The notes beneath the pieces are model-generated. The model did no database searches and was not told the DNA's origin. It was given only the letters and a program-made list of their open reading frames with translations. Made by a program: the position numbers and the translations under genes. From positions 1 through 26,012 of the forward strand of contig JAYTHP010000196.1 of assembly GCA_043732485.1 (NCBI GenBank): 26,012 nt of DNA. The letters are read 5' to 3'. Source of the stretch: Oligoflexia bacterium. Its GTDB lineage: Bacteria; Bdellovibrionota; UBA1018. Shown in pieces: positions 3,432 to 25,929 of this stretch; position 1 is the first letter of the stretch, and the number at the start of each line of letters is the position of its first letter.

Positions 3432-4421
3432 TTAAGAGATGACCGCAGGAAAGTCCATCGACTTCCTGACGCGCGGCTTCTCCCACTCGTCCGCGCGCAG
3501 TGGCGAGAGGTCGCCTTTAAAGCGTCGATGCGTCCAAAGCCATTGCTCGGGATGTGCCCGGATGTGGCGCTCCAAAATAGCGGCGTAAGCTGCGGTATTG
3601 ACTGCCAGTTCCCGGTGCAAATCTCCCTCACTGCTCCCGCTCCCCACCTTGATCCAAGCACAAGGCTTCTCAATCACTACCGCGAGGCGCCCATCCGGTT
3701 TGCGGTAATTACTCACCGGCAAGACCACCGCACCGGTTCTTTTAGCCAAGGTGGCTAGCGCCAAGGACGTCCCGACTGGCACACCAAAAAAAGGTACCCG
3801 CACACCCACTGGCGCTCCGGTGTACTGATCAAGCACGAAGCCCACCGCTTGGTTTTTTTTCAAAGCGCGCAAGACGTCTTTGATCGTCTTAGGCTCGTAA
3901 GTGGCACCCACCCCGTAACGGTTGCGCCCCTGCTCAATCCAAGCATGCAACCAGGAAGGCTTGAGCCGCTTGGTCACCATCAAAAGCGGCACCTTGCCCA
4001 GCACCGCGCCTACCGCCAGCATGATCTCCCAATTACCCAGATGGCTTGAGAGAAATAAAATCCCCTTACCTCCCACCTGAGCGCGCCGAATCTCCTCCCC
4101 GCCTTGCAAATCGCAATTTCGCGCAATCCAAGCAGGCATCGGACCCAGTACCAAGGGAATCTCAACGCAAAGGTGCCCTAAATGATCATAATTCTTCCGC
4201 AATAACTCCGCTTGCAAGCCAAGCTGTCCGGGAAAAGCCAGCGCAAGATTGTTGACCACCACCGACCGCCTGAAGGCTAAGCGGTAGGCCACCCAGCCAA
4301 AGATCCGCCCCCAAAAGCCTTGCAAAAAACGTGGCTGGAGATAGAAACAAAAAAGCGCTCCGCGCACCCCACGCAACGCTAAAGCCAGCAGGAAATGGCG
4401 CGGCGCATTGGTCGCTATCAT
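3432..4421 (-). CDS. lpxL: Lipid A late acyltransferase (LpxL/HtrB family)
   Basis: NNLALAFP, GKGILFLSSHLGNWE (HxxxxE), VGFVLDQ, VPFFG, PEQWLWTHRRFK. ATG 4421 overlaps the upstream TGA (ATGA) and has GGGGAG upstream. Confidence 0.9.
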   Translation of the reverse strand: MIATNAPRHFLLALALRGVRGALFCFYLQPRFLQGFWGRIFGWVAYRLAFRRSVVVNNLALAFPGQLGLQAELLRKNYDHLGHLCVEIPLVLGPMPAWIARNCDLQGGEEIRRAQVGGKGILFLSSHLGNWEIMLAVGAVLGKVPLLMVTKRLKPSWLHAWIEQGRNRYGVGATYEPKTIKDVLRALKKNQAVGFVLDQYTGAPVGVRVPFFGVPVGTSLALATLAKRTGAVVLPVSNYRKPDGRLAVVIEKPCAWIKVGSGSSEGDLHRELAVNTAAYAAILERHIRAHPEQWLWTHRRFKGDLSPLRADEWEKPRVRKSMDFPAVIS

Positions 4422-7063
4422 CTGCGCCGCTCCCCCGTCCATTGACCGCAATTGTTGCCGCCTTCGCCTTCGTTGTGACGCAAAGCATCCGGTGCGCGGT
4501 GGCCTTGCGCCGAACTTGCTGACTCAGCAATAGCGGTTGCAGAGTGCGGCAATTTTTCATCAAACGTCTTCACCTGGACATCTTCACCCCCACCGTCACC
4601 AGGCTCGCACCCCAACTCACCCCACAACAGCCGCTCCCAAACCGCCACCGCCTCCTCCTCTTGAAAATAAAGCTCAGGCTCAATCACCCACACCCGCGCG
4701 CGCACCGCCCCCTGCTCCTCCCACTTCACCCAATCCTTCCCGCTCACCGTCACCCTTGCTCCTACTCGCTCTGCAGCCTCACACCACTGGGCAATCTGGC
4801 TGCGCGTCACGGGCGCATGATCGGGTAAAAAAACTGTCTGCGCAATCGTGCAGCCTAGGGCGTCTAAAAAATCCACCACCCGCTGGGGCTGAGCAATCCC
4901 CAACACCAACCATAAGGGTAGCTCAGGCCGCGTCATCTGGCTGGCCGCCGCTAACCGGGTGTAAGCCTGCAGCTGAGGCGTGTCACCGATGAACGGCTGC
5001 ACCGCTTCTCGAAGCTCTGAGGCTACGCCCACTTGCGTCCAGACCACAAGCTGGCAGTACCTGAGGACGCTATAAAAATCACGAAACAACACCTTGCCAA
5101 CACAACCACTCCTCCTACCACCTCGCTGCGCGTGGGTTAAGGCTACCACTTCGAGATCTTTATGAATTCGCCAGTGCTGCAGGCCATCATCGAGAATCAC
5201 CAGATCAATGCGTGGGCTTTGCCCACCTAACGAGCGCGTCGCAAGGAAACGCACCGCCTGATGAAATTGCCGGACTCGGTCAGCCCCGACTGCAACCACA
5301 GCTTGCGGACAGAGTTGATGCAACAGCACGGGCTCATCGCCTGCAAGCTGGGGTGACACTTCGGGCAATCCTGGACCGAGCAAGCCGCCGCAAGCGTCAT
5401 CAACGTTACTGCCCGCCCACCACGCCCTCCCCCAGCGCCCGCTCCGCCCCCACACTCCACCAAACCCGCGAGTGAGAATGATCACCTGCAAGCCGCGCGC
5501 TGCGGCTTCGCAGGCAATCTTCGCCACCAAGGGCGTTTTGCCACTGCCCCCGCTTTGCAGATTCCCGACACTCACCACCCGGCCAACCCCCGGCAGCACC
5601 TTGCCCTTCAGTACGCCACGGCTGAGCAGCCAGCGCACCCACCACGAGGCACTGGACCACAAAAATGACCCGACGAGGGTGGCCACGGCTGGCCCTTTTT
5701 TGACCCCCTGGCTTCCGGTTTGCCATCGGACTTCTGCTGCCTTCGCAAGGACCTGGGTTGCTAAAAAAAGACTCGGACTTCCGCGCTCTTCACCTGCTTG
5801 AGGCGGCACTTGCAACAGTGCCAGGCGTAAAGTCTGAAAATACTCGCGCTGCCTTGCTCGCGCTGGCTCGCTCTCCAGCAGCTGAATCAGCTCGCCCGTC
5901 AACCGCGCCTCCGTCACCTCATGCATTAAAATCTCAGGAATCGCAGGCAGCCCTAACCCCTGGCCAGGGAGCAGGGCCTGGCTTGATACCCCTGCGGTCT
6001 TTGGTAACGTCGTCACTGCGACTAGATGCGGTCCGTTGACTGCTAGATTGACCAGCCCGACCGGCCCACGGTAACGCACCAGGTGACGGAAAAGCCATCC
6101 TGTCAAGCGACTCGGACGATAGACCACGCAGTGCGGTAGATCCAAGACTCCCGCTTCAAGCGTTGCCGTGCCCGATTTGATCAGCCCGCACTCAGCGGCA
6201 CGCAAGCAATCAGCGGCATTTCCGACACTTGGCACGAGCCTCACCGTCGCTTGATACCGCTCTTGCAGGCGTTGGATGGCTGGCAAAGCTGCTTGTTGTT
6301 GCGCGCGAGTTGCAAACGGCAACAACACCACCGCCTCCTGTTGGAGCTTCCCCATTGCTCCTGCCACCGCAGCCACCATCACCTCTAAATGGGCCTTCAG
6401 CTCAGCCGGACGACTCCCGGCCATCAAGACCACCCAGCGACACTGCGCAGACGGCTGAGGGAGTGAGGCGAGCGACGCCTGCGCCTCAGCCCGGGTGCGC
6501 GCCAGATCGAGCTCATCCACGAGCGGGTTTCCGACATAAGTCACCTTGCTCAGCCCAAGTTTTTGATAAAAAGCCACTTCAAAAGGAAATATACAAAACA
6601 AGTGCTGAAAGTAACGCTGCAAGAACCGCACTCGACCGGTCCGCCAGATCCAGGTTTTTGGCGGAATGTAGCAAAACACCGGGATATGGAGTTTTTTCAG
6701 GCGCTTGGCTAAGCGAAAGTGAAATTCCGGGTAATCGACCAAAACGGCAAAATCAGGGCGACGCTCGCGCGCGGCTTTTTCCAGCGCCTCTAACGCCCGA
6801 AAAATCCGGGGGAGGGCACCGAACACTTCCGTCGAGCCCATCACCGCAAGCAGAGCACTGCTTTTTGCTTGACCCCGCCCACCGACCACCGACTCAAGCC
6901 CTGCGGCCTGCAAATGCTCCCCACCCATGCCAAAAGCGGTGAGCGTGCCTGGCCGTAACGACTGCAAAGCCCTCAGCAGCTCGGCTGCATGCTGATCGCC
7001 TGAAGCCTCGCCGGCGGAGATCAGACAACACTCATGGAAACTGTGGCGGGTGACTCGTGGCAC
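4418..7063 (-). CDS. lpxB-lpxK: Fused lipid-A-disaccharide synthase (LpxB, ~aa 1-440) and tetraacyldisaccharide 4'-kinase (LpxK, ~aa 455-815)
   Basis: LpxB motifs: ISAGEASGDQH, LVDYPEFH, YIPPKTWIWR, IFPFE, GNPLVD, AGSRPAE, SGTATLE, GLVN. LpxK motifs: VVSVGNLQSGGSGKTP, LTRGFG, GDEP, GADR, ILDDGLQH, GIAQP, LPDH, SGKDWVK. No stop between them. GTG start 8 nt after the lpxA stop, with AAGGGG upstream. Confidence 0.9.
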   Translation of the reverse strand: MPRVTRHSFHECCLISAGEASGDQHAAELLRALQSLRPGTLTAFGMGGEHLQAAGLESVVGGRGQAKSSALLAVMGSTEVFGALPRIFRALEALEKAARERRPDFAVLVDYPEFHFRLAKRLKKLHIPVFCYIPPKTWIWRTGRVRFLQRYFQHLFCIFPFEVAFYQKLGLSKVTYVGNPLVDELDLARTRAEAQASLASLPQPSAQCRWVVLMAGSRPAELKAHLEVMVAAVAGAMGKLQQEAVVLLPFATRAQQQAALPAIQRLQERYQATVRLVPSVGNAADCLRAAECGLIKSGTATLEAGVLDLPHCVVYRPSRLTGWLFRHLVRYRGPVGLVNLAVNGPHLVAVTTLPKTAGVSSQALLPGQGLGLPAIPEILMHEVTEARLTGELIQLLESEPARARQREYFQTLRLALLQVPPQAGEERGSPSLFLATQVLAKAAEVRWQTGSQGVKKGPAVATLVGSFLWSSASWWVRWLLSRGVLKGKVLPGVGRVVSVGNLQSGGSGKTPLVAKIACEAAARGLQVIILTRGFGGVWGRSGRWGRAWWAGSNVDDACGGLLGPGLPEVSPQLAGDEPVLLHQLCPQAVVAVGADRVRQFHQAVRFLATRSLGGQSPRIDLVILDDGLQHWRIHKDLEVVALTHAQRGGRRSGCVGKVLFRDFYSVLRYCQLVVWTQVGVASELREAVQPFIGDTPQLQAYTRLAAASQMTRPELPLWLVLGIAQPQRVVDFLDALGCTIAQTVFLPDHAPVTRSQIAQWCEAAERVGARVTVSGKDWVKWEEQGAVRARVWVIEPELYFQEEEAVAVWERLLWGELGCEPGDGGGEDVQVKTFDEKLPHSATAIAESASSAQGHRAPDALRHNEGEGGNNCGQWTGERRR

Positions 7064-7953: not shown

Positions 7954-8481
7954 TTAAGCCCTGTTTTGCAACGTCGCCAGATTAGAGATTAAATTAGCCA
8001 AGATCTCAGCCTCTGCCACCTTCTGCCCCGCGACCAGCACCTTGCACTGAAACGCCCACAACTTGCCACGACAACGCACCACTTCCGTTTCAATCCGCAG
8101 CTGATCTCCCGGCACCACAGGCTTACGAAAGCGCGCATGATCCACCCCCGCCAGCACGCAAGCAAAATCCTTGAGATCGGCCTCCTGATGCAAAGCAAAA
8201 CTCGGGTAAACCGAAAAACTAGCCGTCTGCGCCATCGCCTCTAAAATCAGCACCCCCGGCATGATGGCAAACTCCGGAAAATGTCCTTGAAAAAAAGGCT
8301 CATTGTAACTTACATTCTTTAAAGCCACCACCTGAGTACCGACCTTGGCACTAGGCGGAGCAGCATCTTGCTCTCCCACCGGATTAATCTTTAAAACGCG
8401 GTCAATCAGTAAAAAAGGCTGACGGTGCGGTAAAAACTTGCGAACTTGATCAATATTGAGCGCGTACTTTTCTGTTTCCAT
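7954..8481 (-). CDS. fabZ: 3-hydroxyacyl-ACP dehydratase
   Basis: LPHRQPFLLIDRV, KNVSYNEPFFQGHFP..MPGVLILEAMAQ, ARFRKPVVPGDQL. Confidence 0.96.
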   Translation of the reverse strand: METEKYALNIDQVRKFLPHRQPFLLIDRVLKINPVGEQDAAPPSAKVGTQVVALKNVSYNEPFFQGHFPEFAIMPGVLILEAMAQTASFSVYPSFALHQEADLKDFACVLAGVDHARFRKPVVPGDQLRIETEVVRCRGKLWAFQCKVLVAGQKVAEAEILANLISNLATLQNRA

Positions 8482-8596
8482 AATTTTTTTTAACTGGCGA
8501 GGCCTCAGACGTCTTCAGCGCTCTTTTTTGTCTTTCTTCAGTGAGACGAAATTTTTTCTCCCCTTCCCCACAACACTCCTGCACACCACTGACTCT

Positions 8597-8624
8597 CTAC
8601 CTACCTACCTAACTAGCTGCCTGC
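8597..8624. repeat. Decaying 4-bp tandem repeat in the lpxD-fabZ spacer
   Basis: ctac ctac ctac ctaa ctag ctgc ctgc. Confidence 0.5.
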
Positions 8625-8677
8625 TAGGCCACCAAAACTCTCCCAAATTGGGTCGAACCCGCTTTTCCGGCTCTCAC

Positions 8678-9856
8678 TCACTCAGCGGCCCCCCTCCTCT
8701 TCAGCTGGCGATTCAACCACCCATGCACCCGAAAATGATCCCGCACCGAACGCTGCGGATTCCCCACCACCTTCTCGCCTGCTGCCACATCTTTCGAGAG
8801 CAAAGTCTGGGCCCCCACCTGTGCCCCGGCTCCCACATGTACATGATTGACAATCGCCGTCATGCCACCGATATAACAAAAATCTCCAAGCTTGGCGTTC
8901 CCTGCCACACAAGTGCCGCCACACACAATCGCCCCCCTGGCCACTTGCACGTTGTGACCGAGGTGCACTAAATTATCAAGCTTAGCGTGATCACCTACCC
9001 GTGTATCAGCGATCGTCCCGCGATCAATCGTGGAATTGGCTCCCACCTCCACCTCGTCGCCCAAGACCACCCGACCAAAGTGATGAATCTTCTGGTGCCC
9101 CCCACACGGAACACCGCGATCACCGTCGCTGTCTACCGCTTTTTTTCGGGCAGCATAGCCAAAACCATCCGCCCCCAGCACACAACCCGCATGCAGCCGC
9201 ACCCGCTTGCCAATCCAGGTGCCGTCGTACATCACCACCCGGGGGAAGAGCACCGATTGCTCCCCAATCTGGCAATCTTCACCCACCACGCATCCCGGAT
9301 AAAGCCTCGCGCCTGCCTCAATCACAGTTCCCGCACCCACTACACAGTGCGCCTCGATTACCACGCCACTTGCGAGCTGCACCCCGTCTCCGATCACCGC
9401 ACTCGCGTGAACCTGCGGGGGAGAAAGCGTCAGCGACATTGGAGAGTGGGTGGTTTGCGGGAGATGACTACTTTTGAGCTGAGCTTGCGCAAAATGCTCC
9501 GACAGCACAGCCATCGCGAGATAAGGATCGCTTGCCGCCACCACCACCGTGCGACCCCAGAAAGGGAAGGGCACTGCAAGCAGGGGCGTCACAAAATCAA
9601 AACCCGTGACCAGGATCCCTGCCCCAACACTTGCAAGTTCCGCTTGATATTTTCGGGAAAAGAAAAACACCAGATGCTCAGGCTGAGATCCCGCAAGCGG
9701 CGCGAAACGCCTGACCTGGGCTTGCTGGGGATCAGCAAAAAAACGCTGAGCGCTCTTTTGCTCGGTTTTTCCATCGCTTTTCTGGTCGCTTGGGCCCACC
9801 ACCCGACAGCGAATCTGGTGCTGCTCCAAGAGCGCTAAAACTTCCGCAACAGTCAC
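8678..9856 (-). CDS. lpxD: UDP-3-O-acyl-glucosamine N-acyltransferase
   Basis: DPYLA, hexapeptide repeats, GADGFGY, VEVGANSTIDRG, KLDNLVHLGHNV, GNPQR. Start placed at GTG 9856 with AAGGAG upstream; the track gives 9919. Confidence 0.94.
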   Translation of the reverse strand: MTVAEVLALLEQHQIRCRVVGPSDQKSDGKTEQKSAQRFFADPQQAQVRRFAPLAGSQPEHLVFFFSRKYQAELASVGAGILVTGFDFVTPLLAVPFPFWGRTVVVAASDPYLAMAVLSEHFAQAQLKSSHLPQTTHSPMSLTLSPPQVHASAVIGDGVQLASGVVIEAHCVVGAGTVIEAGARLYPGCVVGEDCQIGEQSVLFPRVVMYDGTWIGKRVRLHAGCVLGADGFGYAARKKAVDSDGDRGVPCGGHQKIHHFGRVVLGDEVEVGANSTIDRGTIADTRVGDHAKLDNLVHLGHNVQVARGAIVCGGTCVAGNAKLGDFCYIGGMTAIVNHVHVGAGAQVGAQTLLSKDVAAGEKVVGNPQRSVRDHFRVHGWLNRQLKRRGAAE

Positions 9857-10851: not shown

Positions 10852-13365
10852 CTAAAACGGCGGTCCGATGAAAAACTGGAAGACCGGGCTGGGGTTCCCC
10901 GCCGGCGCATTGAGCGGAAAGCCCCATTCAAAGCGCAGCGGCCCAATTGGTGAAAACCAACGCAACCCGAAGCCTGCATCCATCATGAGTGGGGCGTTCA
11001 GCGGCCAGCTATTCCAGGAATTGCCGATATCATAGAACAACACTAGCTTGACGCCCGCATCTTTTAGGATCGGATACTCTAACTCAAAGAGCGAAAAAGC
11101 CTCGAAATCCCCGCCAGTCGGCTGCGGCACTGGCTGGTTCCCAATGCTTGCCGGAGGCAGCTGGGGACCGAGCTGAAACAGTTGAAAGCCCTTCATGTTA
11201 TTGGGACCCCCCAGGTAAAAGCGCTGCGACGGGGGCGTTATCCCTGGGCGCAAGTTGACCAGTTGCCCCACTTCCAGGTTAGTGCGAAACACCAGATCAC
11301 CGATCACGCGGTGGTAAAAACGGTTATTAAAGACCGTCTTGGCAAAAGCCAAATCGCCCCCTAACCCCGCAAACTCGGTCGAGAGACTTTGATAACTGCC
11401 GCCTGTGGTTTCAAAGCGATTATTGCGCTGATCCCTCACCACGCTCAGCACCAGGCTGGATAAAATCCCGTGATCGGCGTTCATTTGCGAAAACAAGAAG
11501 GCCTTATCCACCCCGTCAATGCCATCGATCGCTAAATCGCGGATCCCTTCAAATTTATAAGTCAAAAACACGTTGGTGTAATCGGAGATCGGATGGCCTA
11601 ATTTAACGTCAGCCCCACTTTTTTGGGTGTTCCAACGGTACGGGATCGGCACCTTGACGTGATACAAGTCAGCGCCCGTGACCCAGCGCGAATCAAAGGT
11701 GTAAGGCTCGGTAAACCCTAAATTGAAGCTTTGCGAGAGTTGCGAGATCGAATACTGAGCCGCCAGACTGATGGTTTGCCCTTGCCCTAGCACGTTAATT
11801 TCAGAAATTTGGGTGGTAAAAAATGGCCCTTGCACCGAACCAAACCCTGCCCCCAGCGTCACCGTCCCAGTCGAGCGCTCCTTAACTGAGATTTCGACAT
11901 TTAAGACGTGGGGATGATCTTTTTGCGGAACGGTATTAAAACTCACCTCGCCTGGCGCAAAGTAACCCAAACGCTCGACGTTCTCGCGTGAAATCCTCAT
12001 CCGCGTACCATTAAACAGCTCGCCTTCGACAATTTTCAGCTCCCGGCGAATCACTCGGTCTTGGGTTTTGGTGTTATTAATGATGTTAATCTCACCTAAG
12101 TAAGCTAAATAGCCCTTTTCAAAGCCATAATCGAGGTCAATCCGCTTGCTATCCTCGTGAACATTCATCTTGGGGATGACGTTGACAAAAGCGTAACCCA
12201 AGTCCTGATACTTTTCCGTCAACGCCTGAATGTCGGCATTACGGTTGGAGATACTGAAAACCTCATCGTGCTGTAATTTCAAGTCGTGCAGCAACTCATC
12301 TTTCGGGAACAAAAGATCGCCACTGACCTCAAGCTCCCCGATGCGATAGCGCTCGCCCTCTTCGAGGTAAAGCGAAATAAAGAGCCATTTCTTGTCGTCA
12401 CTCATGGTAACGACCGGATGGTCAAGCTTAAACTTAATAAACCCGTGATCCAGGTACCAGAGACTGAGCCGCTGCAAATCCTGCTTAAAAGCCGACTCCT
12501 TGAAGTTCCCCGAGCTATTGAGCGCCGAGAGCAGCCCACCTTCGCGGGTGTCAGCTAAGACACTTTTCAGCTGCTCATCGGTGAATTGGTGGTTATTCAG
12601 GAAGGTGATTTTCTTGATCTGCACCTTATCATAGTCTTGCACCCGGTAGATGAGCTCTACTTCCTCGTCACTGAGCGGCTTGATCTCGTAACTGACCCGC
12701 GCCAGGTAAAAGCCCTTTTCCTCATAATGCTTTTGAATCCGTAAAACGTCTTGCTGCACCTTGTGAATGTCAAGAATCGACCATTCTTTCAGCTTCACCA
12801 CATCTCTTAAGTCATGGGTGCTAATGCGATCGTTCCCGGCAAAGTTGAGCTCAGCAATCACCGGCCGCTCCCGCACCACGATCCAAACTCGCACCCGCTG
12901 GCTTGCGGTCTTGGTCAGCTCCACCGTCACGTCATCAAAGAAACCTAAGCGAAAGACGGCGCGAATCGCCTCACGCACCGACTCAGAGGTGAGCAGCTCC
13001 CCACGCTTCAGCGGTATTTTCGCTAAAACCGCCTCCTTTTCAATGCGTTTCAGCCCGCGAACCCGCACGTCAGTAATCCTTGCATCAGTGAAAGACAAAG
13101 CAGCCGTCGTCGGTAAGGGTGAGGGTGCCACCGCCGCTGCGCTGGGTTGCAGCGTTAATTCTTGAGTAATAGACTCCGGAATTTCAGACGGCGCTTCAGC
13201 AGCCGCAGCAGGCCTGAAATAAAAACCCACCGGACTTATCGTCATCAAAAAAGCGACCAAAAGCGAAGAAACTGATTTTTGAGGAATCAGACGAGGGGGT
13301 AACGGATGGGGGTTTTGAGCAATCACTGACTTTAATCTGTAGTTTGCCGAGCAAGGCTGTGTCAA
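10852..13365 (-). CDS. bamA: Outer membrane protein assembly factor BamA (start codon uncertain)
   Basis: POTRA repeats (GLKRIE, GFFDDV, YEEKGFY, KTQDRVIRRE, LGYF, VKERSTG), FTEPY, RFYLGGPNNMKGF, GFGLRWFSPIGPLRFEWG, terminal Phe. Confidence 0.96.
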   Translation of the reverse strand: MTQPCSANYRLKSVIAQNPHPLPPRLIPQKSVSSLLVAFLMTISPVGFYFRPAAAAEAPSEIPESITQELTLQPSAAAVAPSPLPTTAALSFTDARITDVRVRGLKRIEKEAVLAKIPLKRGELLTSESVREAIRAVFRLGFFDDVTVELTKTASQRVRVWIVVRERPVIAELNFAGNDRISTHDLRDVVKLKEWSILDIHKVQQDVLRIQKHYEEKGFYLARVSYEIKPLSDEEVELIYRVQDYDKVQIKKITFLNNHQFTDEQLKSVLADTREGGLLSALNSSGNFKESAFKQDLQRLSLWYLDHGFIKFKLDHPVVTMSDDKKWLFISLYLEEGERYRIGELEVSGDLLFPKDELLHDLKLQHDEVFSISNRNADIQALTEKYQDLGYAFVNVIPKMNVHEDSKRIDLDYGFEKGYLAYLGEINIINNTKTQDRVIRRELKIVEGELFNGTRMRISRENVERLGYFAPGEVSFNTVPQKDHPHVLNVEISVKERSTGTVTLGAGFGSVQGPFFTTQISEINVLGQGQTISLAAQYSISQLSQSFNLGFTEPYTFDSRWVTGADLYHVKVPIPYRWNTQKSGADVKLGHPISDYTNVFLTYKFEGIRDLAIDGIDGVDKAFLFSQMNADHGILSSLVLSVVRDQRNNRFETTGGSYQSLSTEFAGLGGDLAFAKTVFNNRFYHRVIGDLVFRTNLEVGQLVNLRPGITPPSQRFYLGGPNNMKGFQLFQLGPQLPPASIGNQPVPQPTGGDFEAFSLFELEYPILKDAGVKLVLFYDIGNSWNSWPLNAPLMMDAGFGLRWFSPIGPLRFEWGFPLNAPAGNPSPVFQFFIGPPF

Positions 13366-13447
13366 GCGATTGCTGCAAACTTTAAATTTTTGCGCCTAAG
13401 CCCTGGATTGTGTCTTCATTCCAACTGGCTTCTTGCCCCAGCAATTA

Positions 13448-15652
13448 CTAGCGCCAAAACGAGTTGAGCAGCTGTTTTTCTTGGATAATTTGTGAATCGC
13501 GGTCTACCCGTGGCACCTCGGCGCGGCGGTGAAAGACACAACGCACATCCACCGCTTGCTCCAAAGCCGGACGTAACCGACCCTGGGCGTCACTGAGGAG
13601 CACGCCCTTAAAAGGCTCGTTTTCCTCCAAACTAGCGCTTTTGAAGAAGTCTTCGTCATCCAGACTATCCAGCGCACTCGGTTCCGACTGCCGATACCAG
13701 AAGCTTTGATCTGCCCGCGCCACGATTTCTTTTTTGGAAACTGTAAGCTGTTGTGAACTGAAGGCCTGGATTCTCATCCACTCCAAACCGCGATTCAACC
13801 ACTCGACTTCCTCAAACTCCGGTAAACTGCCGCCCAAGCGCTGACAAAAATCGGCCGCTTTTTTGCCGCTTGAGGCCTGCCTTAAAACCCCGCTGATCCA
13901 AAACCGCGAAGCTGGAGCCGGCCGCCCCGCAAACGGATCACTGACTTCAAAAACCGGAATTCGCGAGCGATCCACTGCAAGCTTCAAGTAAGGCGGGTAA
14001 GCCATCGTCTCGCTCAGCCTGACCCCGTCCCCCGCTCTTTTAGCCGCACCGTGAAGACTGGCAGCGGCTGACGACGATTCCCCCACCCTTCCAGCGCGGG
14101 CCTCTTCATCCCAAAGCTGGTCGCTTGAGACCACATCAGGCATCAAGCGATGAAAAAGGTGCCCAAGCTTCTGGCGACACTCCGACTTCGGACACTTCAC
14201 AGCGTGATAAGATCCTTCTTGCAGCAAGCTGCTCGCGTTGTCTAATGAGTTGCCTAATGAGCCTGCCATCAAAGCGCCCGATGCGCTGTCGCTACTGCTG
14301 CTGCTGTCGCTGTCACTACTAATTTTTTTCTTAAAAAGCCACAAATCAAAGCAGCGCTTACAAAACGAGTGTCCACACTCCCCGCTCACGAGCTCTCCTA
14401 AGCTGAAGCGATTGGTCAGCAGCGTCATGAAGCGACCCGGCGCACAATGACAAAAAAAGCACACCGATTCTGCCATCACCGCTGAGATCAAATCATCGCC
14501 TGCTCCGGCTAAAACTCTGGTCTGAGCCTGCGGCCGCAAATCAAAGAACACCGGGCGAGGCGTGGACTCAACCGAGCCCGCGCTGACCCGCCCCCTTCCC
14601 TCCGCTTCAAAAGCGGCAAGCACCGAAACCCCACTCAGCTCCGCTTGCGGCGCCTGCGAATCACACGAGGAGGCAAGCGACACCAGCCCCGAGGAGCCAC
14701 TGGAACCCTGCAGGAGGCGCAAATCACGAAAAGCACTTTGCAAATTAGCCAATAAATACGACTGCTTATGATCAATAGCCATCAGTATTTCCCGTACAAA
14801 ATGCTCTTCTGTTTGAAAAAGCTCGGAGCTGATCAACTGAAACACGACCCGCGGGTGCCGATTGTGGGCCGCAAGCAGCACGGGTGTATAGTTTTGATAA
14901 ATCTTCAGTCCGCCCTGCAACGTTACTTGGGTGAACACCACACCTAAGTCGGCTTTTTGTCGCAGGAGCTCTTGTACCACTTCTCTCAGGCCCAGCGCTG
15001 CAGCTAGCGTGAGAGGGGCCCACTGATCTTTGCGTTTTTGATTCAAAGCAAACGGCGCCGTCCCCTCAGGCGAGGCGCGTAGCCGCTGCAAGACTTGGGC
15101 AAGCTTTTGCTGCACCTCAACGCGCGAACGCGTGAACGGCTGGACCCTCAAGGTGAGTGCCCCTAAGTCGGTGAGCTGCTCCATGAACTGCTCAAACAAA
15201 TCCTGCTCTTCTCCTGACTCAGCCACTGCCCCCTGCAGTGCCCCGTTCGGTAACCCAGTCGACATGGCTTGCTGCTGAGACTGAGGCACCCCCCCCCCTT
15301 CCATCCCCGAACCAACCCGCGACGAGCGCTTGAGGTTCTCAGGCAAAAGTGCGGCAGCAAAGACTGGGTCCACAACGAGAGCAGGAGAGACACCCGAGGA
15401 AAACCCAGCGGAGAATCCACCTGACGCAGGGTGAGGCGCGGCGGCCTCGGGTGAGGCTGGCGCTGAGTGAGACGCGTGCTCCGCTAACTCCAAGAGCCTG
15501 GGCTCAGGTACACTGAGCTTGGGGGAGGCCTGAGCAGTACTCCCAAAAAAGCCTAACAAGCACTGCAGCTGAGTGGCGATCAGCAGGTGCGCAAGTCCGG
15601 CCGGTTGAGGAAACAGCTGAGCAGAACGAGTCAAACTTTTTTTCAGTTTCAT
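13448..15652 (-). CDS. Putative secreted ankyrin-repeat / RING-finger / C-type-lectin-like protein (734 aa)
   Basis: Basic N-terminus, hydrophobic stretch and AQA site; ankyrin-like WAPLTLAAALGLREVVQELLRQKAD and YTPVLLAAHNRHPRVVFQLI; C398-x2-C-x24-C-G-H-x2-C-x2-C-x52-C-P-x3-C492; C-terminal AADFCQRLGGSLPEFEE...FWY...VRCV. Confidence 0.8.
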   Translation of the reverse strand: MKLKKSLTRSAQLFPQPAGLAHLLIATQLQCLLGFFGSTAQASPKLSVPEPRLLELAEHASHSAPASPEAAAPHPASGGFSAGFSSGVSPALVVDPVFAAALLPENLKRSSRVGSGMEGGGVPQSQQQAMSTGLPNGALQGAVAESGEEQDLFEQFMEQLTDLGALTLRVQPFTRSRVEVQQKLAQVLQRLRASPEGTAPFALNQKRKDQWAPLTLAAALGLREVVQELLRQKADLGVVFTQVTLQGGLKIYQNYTPVLLAAHNRHPRVVFQLISSELFQTEEHFVREILMAIDHKQSYLLANLQSAFRDLRLLQGSSGSSGLVSLASSCDSQAPQAELSGVSVLAAFEAEGRGRVSAGSVESTPRPVFFDLRPQAQTRVLAGAGDDLISAVMAESVCFFCHCAPGRFMTLLTNRFSLGELVSGECGHSFCKRCFDLWLFKKKISSDSDSSSSSDSASGALMAGSLGNSLDNASSLLQEGSYHAVKCPKSECRQKLGHLFHRLMPDVVSSDQLWDEEARAGRVGESSSAAASLHGAAKRAGDGVRLSETMAYPPYLKLAVDRSRIPVFEVSDPFAGRPAPASRFWISGVLRQASSGKKAADFCQRLGGSLPEFEEVEWLNRGLEWMRIQAFSSQQLTVSKKEIVARADQSFWYRQSEPSALDSLDDEDFFKSASLEENEPFKGVLLSDAQGRLRPALEQAVDVRCVFHRRAEVPRVDRDSQIIQEKQLLNSFWR
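15289..15298 (-). repeat. G10 homopolymer inside the 5' part of the ANK-RING gene
   Basis: Coding strand ATG GAA GGG GGG GGG GTG; the longest G/C run I found in the window. Confidence 0.85.
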
Positions 15653-15710
15653 AGTAAACTTTAGTCTTAGTCCTCTGTCTTAACCGCGTCAATCAATAAA
15701 TTTAAAAAAT

Positions 15711-15732
15711 AGAGAGAGAGAGAGAGAGAGAG
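15711..15732. repeat. (AG)11 / (CT)11 dinucleotide microsatellite
   Basis: 22 nt of perfect AG repeat, about 58 nt upstream of ATG 15652. Confidence 0.95.
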
Positions 15733-16194
15733 CGCAACGCGAACAAAACGAAGAGCAGCAAAGACAAAAAAAGCCCACCCCGAAAGACCGCCAGCGCGGC
15801 CGCCCAACTTCACCGGGGTACAGCCCTTCTTTTCTCTCCGACTCCCCCAACACCCTCGTGCTGTTGCCCTTGTCCTTGGTCCGCAAAAAATGAGCCAGAG
15901 TTACAGCAGCAAAACGTGCGCTTTGCTAGCCCCTCGGGATGGCTGGTAAGCGAGATCAGGAGCCAAAAGAGAACAAGCAAAGGAGAAGGAAGTAAAGAAG
16001 GAAGAGTGGAGAGGGGGCAGTAAAACGGAAAAAGGGAAGGAAAGCTGAGTGCCAGGACCAGATGTTGCGCGGTTGAAGTCCACCCGGGAAAAACTGCGTA
16101 GTCGAGGTGGGCCCCAAGTCCCCAACCGGCCGCTTACCTGACTTTTTAGGTAAATTTTTTGGGACCAACGCACATCAGAGTGCTTTTTACTGGC

Positions 16195-16297: not shown

Positions 16298-16984
16298 TCA
16301 CTCCGCAACAAACTGACCGTCGCGCATCACCAGCGTGCGATGCATCTGGCTTGCCAGCGCCTGGTCGTGGGTGACCAGCAGGACCGAGACTCCTGTGGCT
16401 TGATTAAGTTGCCTTAACAGTTCCATGACATGGCTGCGATTGGCGGAATCCAGATTACCGGTCAGCTCGTCGGCCAGCAGCAGCTTGGGCTTTAAGATCA
16501 CCGCCCTGGCAATCGCCACCCGTTGCTGCTCGCCGCCTGAGAGCTCATGCGGGCGATGACTGGCACGGTGCTTCAAGCCCACGAAGCTCAGCAGCTCGCG
16601 GGCCTGGCGCTCTGAGGTCTCACGCGGATGGCCCGCAATCCAGGTGGGCATCAGCACGTTCTCGAGCGCCGAGAACTCGGGCAAGAGATAGTGGAACTGA
16701 AAGATAAACCCGAGACAACGGTTGCGAAAAAAGGCTAGTTTTTTTTCGGAAAAAGCAAAAAGGTTTTCTTGCGGCTGACCAAAAAGCACTTCCCCGGCGC
16801 TAGGCGGCTCAAGCGTGCCTAAGATATGGAGCAGCGTGCTTTTTCCTACCCCCGAGGCCCCGGTGATTGCTACCATCTCGCCTGCCTGCAACGTGAGGTC
16901 CAGACCTCGCACCACGCCGATTTCTTTTTTTCCCTTAAAGAAAGATTTTTTAAGGCCCTTGGCCTGTAACAGCACCTTACTCAT
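16298..16984 (-). CDS. lolD: Lipoprotein-releasing ABC transporter ATPase
   Basis: [63 protein letters not shown] 16984 overlaps the end of the permease gene. Confidence 0.93.
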
Positions 16985-18194
16985 GTCGTAGTCCTTCGAG
17001 CGGCGACTGGCGCGCCACCTTGAGAGCAGGATAAACTGTCGCAGCCGCCGCAATCAAAAGGGTGACTAAAACAATCAAGATTACTTCGGAACTGCGCACC
17101 CCCACCGGCAAAAAAGTGATGTAATAGATATCCGCTGGCAACTGAATCAAATTCAACCTCGCAATCCCCCACAACGCCAGCCCCCCGCCTAATAAACCTA
17201 AAAACGTCCCTACCCCGCCTAAGCCCACGCCAATCATACAAAACAACCAGAAGCCCTGCTCCGGCCTGAGACCCATGGCTTTTAAAATCCCAATTTCTTT
17301 GGTCTTGTCGTGGATCATCATCATCAAGGTGCCCACCACATTAAAGGAGGCCACTAAAATGATCACGGTTAAAATGAGAGCAATCACGGCCTTTTCGACT
17401 TGAATGGCATAAAACAAATTGCGATTCAACTGACTCCAGTCCTTGGACTTCATCGGGTAATCAAACATTTGTCCCAGTCGATCCGAAGCGAGCCTGGCGT
17501 TTGTGCCTTTCGCCAGTTTTAGGTTAAAATGGGTGACCCGACCTTTTTGCTCTAAAAACCCCTGCACCGCCTCAAGCGTCATAAAGATGAACTTGGAATC
17601 GTACTCAAACATTCCCATCTTCACCAACCCCACCACCTTAGCCAACAGTACCTGCGGCGCGCCGTCGGCTTTCCCAGTAAAAGGGGCAATCAAACGCACC
17701 TGCTCACCCACCCGCAAGCCAAGCTTTTGGGCCAGATGAAAACCCAAGGCCACCTCATCTGAGGCCGCCGGCAAGACCCCTTCACTGAGACTTTGCGGGA
17801 TCTCGGTGACTTCGCCCAAGTGCTCGACTTCGACACCCTGCAAAATCGCACCTGCAACCCCGTTAGGCCCTGCCACCATCAGCTCAGCGACAAACGAGCG
17901 CGTCAGCGCAACCACCTGTGGCAAGCCCTGCCTAAGCTCTTCTTCCACTTGGTCGGCGTCCCGCATCGGTTCGCCGCGCGAGTACAGCATGACATCGCCG
18001 TTGACGCGAGTAATCACGCGGACCAATTCCCCTTCAAAGCCATTAATCACGCTGGTGACCACCATGAGCGCCATCACGCCCAAGGCCACTCCCATGATGG
18101 AGACCCAGGAAATGAACGATAAAAAACTATCGGATGACTGCGAGAGAGTAAACCGCAGCGCTAATTGCCCAAGGAGGCTTCGCGAGCCCTGCAC
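16977..18194 (-). CDS. lolE: Lipoprotein-releasing ABC transporter permease LolC/E
   Basis: FISWVSIMGVALGVMALMVVTSVINGF, GMFEYD, DWSQLNRNLFYAIQVEK, KTKEIGILKAMG, YYITFLP, YPA. GTG start overlaps the lysS TAG. Confidence 0.92.
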   Translation of the reverse strand: MQGSRSLLGQLALRFTLSQSSDSFLSFISWVSIMGVALGVMALMVVTSVINGFEGELVRVITRVNGDVMLYSRGEPMRDADQVEEELRQGLPQVVALTRSFVAELMVAGPNGVAGAILQGVEVEHLGEVTEIPQSLSEGVLPAASDEVALGFHLAQKLGLRVGEQVRLIAPFTGKADGAPQVLLAKVVGLVKMGMFEYDSKFIFMTLEAVQGFLEQKGRVTHFNLKLAKGTNARLASDRLGQMFDYPMKSKDWSQLNRNLFYAIQVEKAVIALILTVIILVASFNVVGTLMMMIHDKTKEIGILKAMGLRPEQGFWLFCMIGVGLGGVGTFLGLLGGGLALWGIARLNLIQLPADIYYITFLPVGVRSSEVILIVLVTLLIAAAATVYPALKVARQSPLEGLRHE

Positions 18195-23639: not shown

Positions 23640-25454
23640 TTAAAGACCGCTTGCCGGCAGAATTACCATCTGCGCGCAGTAGGGATTGGCGGCATTGATC
23701 GAAGTGGAAGCCAGCGCAAAGGTGCTGGTGGAGCTAGCCAAGTGCGGATTGCTACTTGCAACCGCTAAAAACACCAGTTGACTCGTCCCGTTCAGGTAAA
23801 CGGGATTGATCTGCAATTGGGGCAAAATCACCTCATTACTCGCCCCTACCCCAAAGGTAAGGTCGGCTGTCACGGTGGTTCCTGGCAGAAAAAAATCGGA
23901 CATGAGACTCGCGGCGTTGCAATACGGTTGACTAAACGCTTGCAGCGTCACCGTTGCCGCTTCCGGCGTTTGAGCGTGCGCGGCGCTCAGCACGACCTTG
24001 ACGTTGGCCGCAAAGCTCAGTGCCGCGTTTGAGGTTGCTTGAAGCGTGGCAGGCACCCCACTCACACCACCACTCCCTGCAGCTAAGGTCGCAATGGCAC
24101 CGGCGCTGAAAAAATCGAGACACGGCAACCCTCCTCCCAGCTCACTGCTTGCAAGCTCGAGACTTGCGGCGCCAACGATCGGCTGGCTGCTTGACCAGGT
24201 AACGTTCAGCTCGCTCCATTGGGGCCAAGTCGTTAAAAAACCGACAAATCCACCCACCACCGGCGACGGGGCCGAGACCACGGCGTCAGGCAGATGCGGC
24301 AAGATTTGCAGCGGCGCGGCAACTGACAGTTTCACGCCAGACAGGAGGTTTCCGGAACATCCCGATCCCGCATAAAACCCACCTGAGACGCTTTGTACGG
24401 TCGTCGCAGAGGCGTTTACTGGGTTCCCCAAGGCATCAAGAAACTGGGCTCGCAAGAAGCTCGCGCCCCCGGCTACTTGAAAGCCACTGGCACTGCTCAC
24501 GTCGAGCGGACCGTTGTCATACAGCGTCATAGGAATGGGAGTCGTACTAGCTGGTTCTGCAGTGAAGGCGGCTATTTTCACAGGCGCGCCTGCCACGACC
24601 GGGAGTGGTAAGGCTGCCGTTTGCATCGGCTGATCCGCTCCCAAAAGACTAAAAATAAGCCCGGCTGTGGGGTAGTTGGGCGTGGCAAGCGTCACACTGA
24701 CGCCACCGCGTCCTCCTCCCGCTAAAAAATTGACACCCTTTAAAAGCTCAGGACCAAAACTCACCGTCCTGCCGTCGGCAGTCACTCCCGTCACCAAAAC
24801 GCCCGTTGGCGCGCGCGCGGTGGCCGGGAACGTGAGCGTCAGAGGCCCGTTCGCCGTGCCGCCTGCTGGCCAAGGCGGGAGCGGCGTACCTAAAACTACG
24901 TGACTTGCATCTGAGCACTGCGGCAGAGCACCCAGCGTAAGCATCACAGGCGGCGACTGCAGCACACCGCCACTGGAATTGCTTTGGGCAATGAGATAAG
25001 TCGAGCTAGGCTTTAAGCCGGAAGCCAAAACCGCGCCACTAAAGGTTAGCGTCAAGGCCCGGCTATCTAAGATCGCAGCGCTGGGTTGAGTGGCAAAAAG
25101 CGTATCGCTAACAGGCGTGCACCCTGTTGCAGTCACACTCGCAGAATCGCAGACCTGCAAACTCATCTTCTCCTCTCCCGTAAAGGGCACCGGAGAACCT
25201 GCCGCGTTAAACTGCTGGATTGCGCCAAACTCCGCAATCCCAGGGGCTTGAAGCGTCGTGCAACGGGGAGGCAAGCGCACAAACGCCAGCTGAACCGGTT
25301 GCAAGGCGACGCTAGACGAGGGACCTGCTCCCGTCTTGCCATCGCCGACGCTCCCCACGACTCCTGGGTGCCCGGGTTTGGCCGTAATCGTAAAATGCTG
25401 AGTACAAGCTACCAAAACCCAGATCAGGACACCAGGGAGAAGGCGAGCAAGCAT
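23640..25454 (-). CDS. Large hypothetical lipoprotein, A/S/T/P/G-rich, probably beta-sandwich domains
   Basis: About 600-aa ORF; ATG 25454 gives MLARLLPGVLIWVLVA-C (lipobox); eight further Cys; few charged residues. The track start is GTG 25502. Confidence 0.7.
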   Translation of the reverse strand: MLARLLPGVLIWVLVACTQHFTITAKPGHPGVVGSVGDGKTGAGPSSSVALQPVQLAFVRLPPRCTTLQAPGIAEFGAIQQFNAAGSPVPFTGEEKMSLQVCDSASVTATGCTPVSDTLFATQPSAAILDSRALTLTFSGAVLASGLKPSSTYLIAQSNSSGGVLQSPPVMLTLGALPQCSDASHVVLGTPLPPWPAGGTANGPLTLTFPATARAPTGVLVTGVTADGRTVSFGPELLKGVNFLAGGGRGGVSVTLATPNYPTAGLIFSLLGADQPMQTAALPLPVVAGAPVKIAAFTAEPASTTPIPMTLYDNGPLDVSSASGFQVAGGASFLRAQFLDALGNPVNASATTVQSVSGGFYAGSGCSGNLLSGVKLSVAAPLQILPHLPDAVVSAPSPVVGGFVGFLTTWPQWSELNVTWSSSQPIVGAASLELASSELGGGLPCLDFFSAGAIATLAAGSGGVSGVPATLQATSNAALSFAANVKVVLSAAHAQTPEAATVTLQAFSQPYCNAASLMSDFFLPGTTVTADLTFGVGASNEVILPQLQINPVYLNGTSQLVFLAVASSNPHLASSTSTFALASTSINAANPYCAQMVILPASGL

Positions 25455-25929
25455 GTGCGGTAAGAAAAGCGGTTGCAAAAAAGTTAAAAAAAGCCTGCTC
25501 ACTGGTTGTCACTCCCCCGATTAAGGTTTCATTGTCACAGGGGTGGGAGTCAAAGCACGTACCCAACTTCAGCTTCAGCGGTCGACGTCTAAAACTGACC
25601 CACTCTCAGGGAAGTCATCGGCTCTCCACCAGTATTTCTAAAGCAAGCCATGTGTAATTTATGACATCGTGGCCATGTGCAACGGCTGCGGCCAGTGACG
25701 ATACCTCACCTCACTGCCACAACACTATCTTCTCAAAAGAGAATAGCAAATTGAGCAATCTTTTGAGGGACTCAGGATGCACTCACATGATATTTTGGAC
25801 TAGAGTGGAAAGGGAAAAAGAGAAGAGGGGAGAGAAAAAAAGAAAGCCCATCCCTAAACGATGGATTACAAAAAATTCGCTTTGTATGGAAAAAACGAGA
25901 CTGAGGAGATCTGAAGAAAGAAAAAAAAT

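Follow-up and report, generated by a model that had tools for sequence, protein, structure and literature searches.

A putative exported ankyrin-RING protein of a Bdellovibrionota bacterium as a candidate mimic of eukaryotic ubiquitin ligases

Introduction

Between the envelope genes lolD and bamA of an Oligoflexia bacterium (Bdellovibrionota) lies a 734-aa open reading frame (ORF) that joins a putative signal peptide, two ankyrin (ANK) repeats, a RING domain and a C-terminal Lcl_C domain. This architecture raises the question of where, and on what, such a protein may act, since a periplasmic or extracellular RING would be without E2 and ATP in the bacterium. A first-pass annotation of the window, i.e., the whole stretch of 26,012 nucleotides that was analysed, had proposed a host-directed, E3-like effector. 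In the following, we examine the locus, the protein, its family and the companion genes, and compare the proposed ligase with known bacterial and eukaryotic systems.

Genomic context of the ANK-RING gene

The window comprises an envelope cluster on the minus strand, in the order trxB, lysS, lolE, lolD, ANK-RING ORF, bamA, skp, lpxD, fabZ, lpxA and lpxB-lpxK (Pfam labels; Table 1). The last two genes are fused into a single ORF of 881 aa (4418-7063), and a signal-bearing, Ser/Thr/Gly-rich ORF of 620 aa without a Pfam match (23640-25502) likely encodes a surface protein. A spacer of 645 bp separates lolD from the ANK-RING ORF and includes a GA dinucleotide repeat upstream of the latter (~15700-15740), where independent contigs break.

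Of 40 sampled relatives, five were omitted because of a short or partial bamA match; the region upstream of bamA was fetched for the remaining 35, and three more relatives were checked. Among these 38 genomes, lolD is found at most 382 bp from the bamA match in 33, unrelated inserts lie between the two genes in three, and the fetched stretch holds no lolD in two. The three other inserts (L034, L048, L026) indicate that the site tolerates insertions. The ANK-RING ORF is absent from the lolD-bamA site in all 38 relatives, and three genomes (G005, G009 and G042) carry its family at other loci, with lolD adjoining bamA. At this site, the ORF is an insertion specific to its lineage. The synteny comparison bears out the earlier view that lolD is followed by bamA in relatives and that the gene is accessory rather than a conserved housekeeping orthologue. 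Its place within the core envelope cluster has no functional significance; the idea that the gene acts together with Lol/Bam was dismissed, as the family holders keep the gene elsewhere and lolD beside bamA.

Eukaryote-like domains within a metagenome bin might reflect eukaryotic contamination, or a RING that works with bacterial E1/E2 enzymes. To this explanation we give almost no credence, and we regard it as largely refuted. The ORF is intron-free and shares one contig with bamA at flat read depth in two sequencing runs, from which the window may derive, and fragments of it recur unchanged in two runs from another study. Its GC and GC3 match the genome, and a GC3 of 0.605, close to the 0.61-0.675 of seven core genes of the window, indicates that the gene is adapted to the codon use of the genome that carries it. 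Moreover, the RBR genes described below have genes for ATP synthase a/c and phosphatidylserine decarboxylase as neighbours, and the genome yielded no E2 (best E value 2.5 with an E2 profile that gave E ≤ 5e-41 for 3/3 held-out E2 controls). The Pfam E2 model PF00179 matched none of five genomes, but its positive controls gave no match either.

Table 1. Features of the ANK-RING locus and of companion genes in the same genome
Feature	Coordinates	Strand	Remarks
ANK-RING ORF (P0001)	13448..15652	-	signal peptide - ANK x2 - RING - Lcl_C
bamA, downstream flank	10852..13365	-	Pfam POTRA x5 + Omp85
lolD, upstream flank	16298..17053	-	Pfam ABC_tran; adjoins lolE (FtsX/MacB)
Putative Sec signal peptide, residues 1-42	15527..15652	-	ends AQA; from sequence, hydropathy 1.64
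Low-complexity linker, residues 43-180	15113..15526	-	gapped in 10/10 relatives (alignment A3)
Ankyrin module, residues 181-315	14708..15112	-	two repeats, about 203-237 and 250-277, plus capping helices
C3HC4 RING, residues 398-493	14174..14461	-	E2-contact positions F400, W438, P488, linchpin R493
Ser/Asp-rich insertion inside RING, residues ~444-480	14213..14323	-	specific to the ANK-RING ORF; low pLDDT
Lcl_C/DUF1566-type C-type-lectin-like domain, residues 561-712	13517..13972	-	profiles from relatives only
RBR-like ORFs	L100:2305-4269, 4482-6374; L233:5300-7567, 8004-9629, 12256-14283; L234:449-3640		
Signal + F-box-like proteins	L103:2733-4892; L235:895-2376; L236:1035-3524		LRRs by Pfam in one, with a GALA-like plan

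Domain architecture

The N-terminus resembles a signal peptide, albeit a weak one: its hydropathy, a heuristic measure, is the lowest in the family, in which relatives show clear signal-like ends before the ankyrin module. The linker that follows is mostly missing from relatives. Pfam Ank exceeds its cut-off at residues 211-236, an E-x-x-x-A helix of the ankyrin module is invariant across the family, and fold searches with a model of the ORF match ankyrins.

The RING contains eight Zn ligands in order (C398, C401, C426, H428, C431, C434, C487 and C492), a pattern reproduced by none of 20000 shuffles of the ORF. A RING canonically contacts its E2 through a hydrophobic position preceding the second Cys, a helix Trp, a Pro after the seventh Cys and a linchpin Arg, and all four are kept here (F400, W438, P488 and R493). 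The first of these contacts is also stated in the available text of PMC12591485. Pfam RING models match residues 422-442 and stay below their curated cut-offs (best 19.9 vs 27 and 17 vs 21 bits) due to the long loop between the sixth and seventh Cys, which counts 52 residues in the ORF versus 10-16 in relatives. The relatives L072, L076 and P0023 exceed Pfam RING cut-offs (L072: zf-C3HC4, 34.9 vs 21 bits).

A structure model built on an alignment of 13 rows (A10) has a mean pLDDT of 55, with a good ankyrin part and a RING core predicted as hairpin and helix. The β-hairpin and helix at residues 420-448 reach a pLDDT of 74-79, the CPKSEC region 67-71 and the first dyad ~53-58. Among the fold matches listed, all ankyrins, the RING and Lcl parts have no counterpart, and both were barely tested by this search. 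A single-sequence AlphaFold model was discarded as unusable (pLDDT 35).

The C-terminal domain shows the Lcl_C-type motif W/F-x-G ... A-x-x-[FY]-C ... LP ... FW ... VRCV. It is matched by a relatives-only profile with an E value of 0.0034, and a profile of 71 Lcl-type domains, from which the ORF was excluded, matches residues 561-712 with an E value of 3.7e-6. Pfam PF07603 has no direct match in the ORF, and the link runs through relatives, one of which (L220) passes the PF07603 cut-off. The Lcl profile (A6) found no match among PDB sequences, and for residues 540-734 the best ESM Atlas score was 0.83, which serves as a lead only.

Hence, the parts named in the first-pass annotation withstand scrutiny: an N-terminus ending in AQA, two ankyrin-like repeats, a full C3HC4 ligand set, and a lectin-like C-terminal module that can now be specified as Lcl_C/DUF1566-type via relatives.

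A small family of ANK-RING-lectin proteins

The domain combination had not been recognised from any described protein; paralogue and homologue searches reveal a small family of 11 known signal-ANK-RING-lectin proteins, the ORF included. Of 30 phmmer matches among 1.84 billion representatives, four share the plan of signal, two ankyrin repeats, RING and a C-terminal Lcl_C/FGE-sulfatase-like domain, and genome searches add six copies in G042, G009 and G005. The ANK-RING module occurs in 4/401 Bdellovibrionota genomes, all of the window's family and including its own genome. A full-length homologue search over 8000 scored candidates of 403-1285 aa returned only the ORF itself and no close homologue; a search with alignment A2 yielded P0016 and seven generic ankyrin proteins. 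Two metagenome scans for the family gave nothing and six generic ankyrin loci, respectively, and a viral scan found none.

All 11 members share seven RING Cys, the CP..CR signature with the linchpin Arg and a hydrophobic position ahead of the second Cys. The His ligand is present in four, while the other seven have an extra Cys that precedes the His position; the helix Trp is likewise kept in 4/11. C-terminally, six members end in an Lcl-type and five in an FGE-type domain, the latter assigned by Pfam (P0023, L058), as a near copy of L058 (L067) or by alignment (P0010, P0014). A profile comparison of Lcl and FGE members (A6 vs A8) gave a probability of 1.5%; we assume that both types adopt a C-type-lectin fold. 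Adjoining an ANK-RING-Lcl copy in G005, the ORF L072:2316-3812 matches Pfam Anthrax_toxA, an adenylyl-cyclase-type fold (26.9 vs 25 bits).

The ORF is the most divergent member, with its weak signal peptide and long low-complexity inserts, one of them within the RING. It might therefore be a decayed copy, in a family of E3 mimics, that lost its function under relaxed selection, as the extended RING loop, ~140 extra linker residues, the low hydropathy of 1.64 and the lack of a close homologue among the 8000 candidates could suggest. We deem this unlikely, since the frame of 734 codons is uninterrupted and neither a ligand nor an E2-contact residue has been lost. The ORF retains His428, Trp438, Pro488 and Arg493, although most relatives lack the His and the Trp. 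Besides, the inserts sit in loops and leave the modelled hairpin and helix undisturbed, and the Simkania RING candidate likewise bears a large insertion, according to the accessible text of PMC12591485.

Companion ubiquitin-system genes

Besides the ANK-RING ORF, which is no RBR, the same genome encodes six full RBR-like proteins (RING1-IBR-RING2) with signal-like N-termini and two partial ones; all six full proteins keep the catalytic Cys of RING2, as do 12/12 aligned RBR-like sequences of this domain order, six of them from this genome. A profile of five of these ORFs matches human ARIH2 over positions 12-246 of 250 (E value 4.6e-8) as well as HOIL-1. The RBR-like proteins of this genome also match parkin RING2. 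In addition, there are three F-box-like proteins, two assigned by Pfam and the third by its motif along with LRRs, and about nine ankyrin proteins.

These genes are unevenly distributed. RING_2 occurs in 9/75 genomes of the window's family and in none of 14 controls; phylum-wide, it is present in ten of 401 genomes (seven in the family), and IBR in seven (six in the family). The RBR type of the window's genome is found in 6/75 and F-boxes in 4/75 family genomes, and G005 alone has 14 RING matches. In a single-gene tree of BamA with long branches (24 rows, without G055 and G084), eight genomes bearing RING, RBR or F-box genes fall together on one side of a branch with support 98/96. Judged from these matches, the three gene types are concentrated in a single branch of the family.

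The Lcl domain is a recurrent partner: in a scan of 48 proteins, the cargoes joined to its N-terminal side comprise RING, RBR/IBR, F-box, kinase, metallophosphatase, Sel1 and C58 protease types. Lcl-type domains occur in 22/75 family genomes, with up to 18 matches in genomes of the branch with E3 genes. Relatives without RING or IBR matches also have proteins composed of signal, cargo and Lcl, mostly in 1-4 copies; accordingly, the tag is not confined to cargo aimed at eukaryotes and looks older than the E3 cargoes.

Several further protein sets were observed in these genomes. A large paralogue set (L096, L193, L200, L208, L214, L215, L217, L225) combines a RING-like part and a single IBR/RING2-like unit with a GCNA motif, followed by Lcl, and by its sequence appears to be a shortened RBR-like design. 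Proteins of 770-950 aa, composed of a signal, an uncharacterised domain and Lcl (L202, L204, L206, L207, L211, L221, L222, L226), are expanded in the same genomes; of these eight proteins, seven were scanned, and their cargo has no Pfam match. A further domain without an assigned name, in which a C-x-x-G-x-F-x-R-L motif is conserved (L101:2114-4831, L102:1-2640; relatives L073, L074, L216) is fused to ANK or Lcl/FGE tags, lacks Pfam and Atlas matches and is possibly a Cys-dependent ligase or hydrolase. Three proteins (L068:868-2076, L083:1498-2691, L085:1498-2730) feature a signal, two Q-x-x-[IM]-T-D-Y-F motifs, a segment resembling an F-box and a tag of the FGE type. We take these motifs to be PIP-degron-like, a label which, if right, would suggest PCNA or nuclear proteins as targets. 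Finally, L104:1672-4311 harbours a cysteine-protease-like GNCGE...H...D motif, presumably HopX-like, ahead of many ankyrin repeats.

Delivery and life style

Each of five genomes, 80-95% complete, contains one FHIPEP (FlhA/SctV) match and four secretins, and in none of them were VirB4, the T6SS sheath protein VipB or a second FlhA/SctV found. In the window's genome, GspD passes its NCBIfam cut-off and its gene adjoins gspE, and hence type II secretion system (T2SS) genes are present, as are genes of flagellar export. The TLC nucleotide translocase gave no match, but neither did its control. That no T3SS, VirB-type T4SS or T6SS was found counts against action in a host cytosol; bacteria that prey by entry would presumably have no need of an injectisome.

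The first-pass annotation had drawn a likeness to intracellular bacteria. The hallmarks of an obligate endosymbiont that were sought (VirB4, T6SS sheath, second FlhA/SctV, TLC translocase) were not found, whereas an FlhA-family gene, a T2SS and four secretins are present. A resident symbiont is therefore no better an explanation than a motile organism that preys on, or parasitises, microeukaryotes. In the available text of PMC12865303, FD111-like bacteria of the Oligoflexales are described as attaching to algal cells, which they enter and in which they replicate.

The same data bear on two other explanations. The protein might be a secreted or surface adhesin or lectin for ordinary bacterial prey or biofilm, with a Zn finger and ankyrin repeats of structural use only. 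Proteins with a signal and Lcl are indeed widespread (22/75 family genomes), no injectisome was found, and the Legionella Lcl_C is a glycosaminoglycan-binding adhesin head in the accessible part of PMC11162425. We nevertheless consider an adhesin decidedly unlikely, given that all 11 members conserve the linchpin Arg and the hydrophobic E2-contact position, and that the gene co-occurs with F-boxes and catalytic-Cys RBRs without a known role against bacterial prey. Alternatively, a free-living bacterium might use an active E3 for defence, either released in the food vacuole of a grazing protist or placed on the bacterial surface against ubiquitin-based killing; the life style would differ, while the chemistry is that of an E3 mimic for attack. 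The FlhA-family gene and the four secretins that were kept are compatible with defence, and so is the missing TLC match, though its control was silent. This alternative appears highly improbable, as the arsenal, in its extent and diversity (14 RING matches in G005; RBR, F-box, kinase and C58 protease cargoes), resembles that of amoeba-associated Chlamydiae (PMC4209131, in the text available) more than it does an incidental defence.

Proposed function

The ANK-RING ORF is probably a Sec/T2SS-exported mimic of RING E3 ubiquitin ligases that would use the E2~ubiquitin of a eukaryotic host or prey. The host-directed reading put forward earlier gains support from the lack of an own E2, from six RBR-like and three F-box-like proteins and from the clustering of RING, IBR and F-box genes in one branch. 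The signal peptide would direct Sec export across the inner membrane, and the outer membrane would most likely be crossed via the T2SS, since gspD-gspE are present and the Lcl_C-bearing Legionella Lcl is a T2SS substrate. The Lcl_C domain may anchor the protein to the eukaryotic host or prey, on a surface of glycan or membrane, or may be a delivery tag common to many cargoes. Inside an invaded or breached eukaryotic cell, the RING is predicted to bind two Zn ions and the host E2~ubiquitin, and the ankyrin pair, by analogy to known ANK-E3 proteins, might select the substrate to be ubiquitinated. The gene would be one component of a set of signal-bearing RING, RBR and F-box proteins that extends across the lineage.

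On a broader scale, one Bdellovibrionota branch may have switched from bacterial prey to microeukaryotes, employing Sec/T2SS-exported ubiquitin mimics (ANK-RING, RING, F-box and true RBR), many with a swappable Lcl_C/FGE tag for address or uptake. We advance this scenario tentatively, as a possibility just short of an even balance, and with the same reserve propose that the ANK-RING ORF is one member of that exported system. If true, the RBR ligases would be a class not yet reported in bacteria. The ANK-RING ORF and the many further such genes suggest a protist- or algae-directed lineage, implying an unrecognised eukaryote-attacking or eukaryote-dwelling life style in a phylum treated as bacterial predators, and effector delivery without type III, IV or VI injection.

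Comparison with known systems

Zn-RING ligases from bacteria have hardly been described. One example from Simkania negevensis, SneRING (SNE_A12920), published in 2025, is a Zn-binding RING that is active in vitro and relies on eukaryotic E1/E2 (accessible text of PMC12591485 and PMC13720258). It likewise represents a bacterial Zn-type RING with an extra C-terminal domain. SneRING is a chlamydial protein of 25 kDa with an atypical ligand set, and the words ankyrin and signal peptide do not occur in the text available (PMC12591485). The ANK-RING ORF, in contrast, is a Bdellovibrionota protein with a canonical C3HC4 set, ankyrin repeats, a signal peptide and Lcl_C.

Type III or IV injection serves the chlamydial NEX1b, Legionella AnkB and LubX and Ralstonia GALA proteins. 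For Legionella, such injection is stated in the part of PMC11162425 at hand. The RING/U-box-LRR (NEX1b) and F-box families of Parachlamydiaceae are also lineage-wide expansions of modular E3 parts and repeat domains (available text of PMC4209131), and the same plan of E3 parts joined to repeat domains applies to AnkB, LubX and GALA (PMC13720258, in part). Unlike these injected E3 mimics, the Bdellovibrionota cargoes, RBRs among them, bear signals of the Sec type and, at the C-terminus, a tag with a lectin fold.

Plant XB3/XBAT ANK-RING E3 ligases also place ankyrin repeats ahead of a RING-HC, a likeness of architecture only: Pfam RING_XB3-XBAT31 scores far below its cut-off for the ANK-RING ORF (E value 0.02; 15.4 vs 50 bits), and the plant proteins are not known to have a signal peptide or Lcl_C.

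Legionella Lcl, a T2SS substrate, shares the order of signal, N-terminal region and C-terminal Lcl_C, and its DUF1566 head has a C-type-lectin-like fold that binds sulphated glycosaminoglycans (PMC11162425, as far as available). The ANK-RING ORF differs from it in lacking the collagen repeat, in its ANK-RING cargo and in its indirect PF07603 match.

The companion RBR proteins have the RING1-IBR-RING2 order and catalytic Cys of eukaryotic ARIH2, HOIL-1 and parkin. They differ in being bacterial and signal-bearing, in having ANK, helical or Lcl modules instead of Ariadne or Ubl domains, and in that another residue usually takes the place of the His found two positions after the Cys. According to the portion available of an October 2026 review (PMC13720258), bacterial RBR counterparts have not been identified, and for this reason the RBR genes are the most striking result: the six signal-bearing proteins are candidates for the first bacterial RBR ligases. 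In the open literature, covered mostly through titles and the beginnings of abstracts, no description of Bdellovibrionota E3 mimics or bacterial RBRs was found, though Pfam/InterPro may list bacterial IBR matches; the accessible portions of PMC9944714 and PMC13200544 hold nothing on E3 mimics. Judging from its sequence, the ANK-RING ORF would work like SneRING and other bacterial RING/U-box mimics but belongs to none of these groups.
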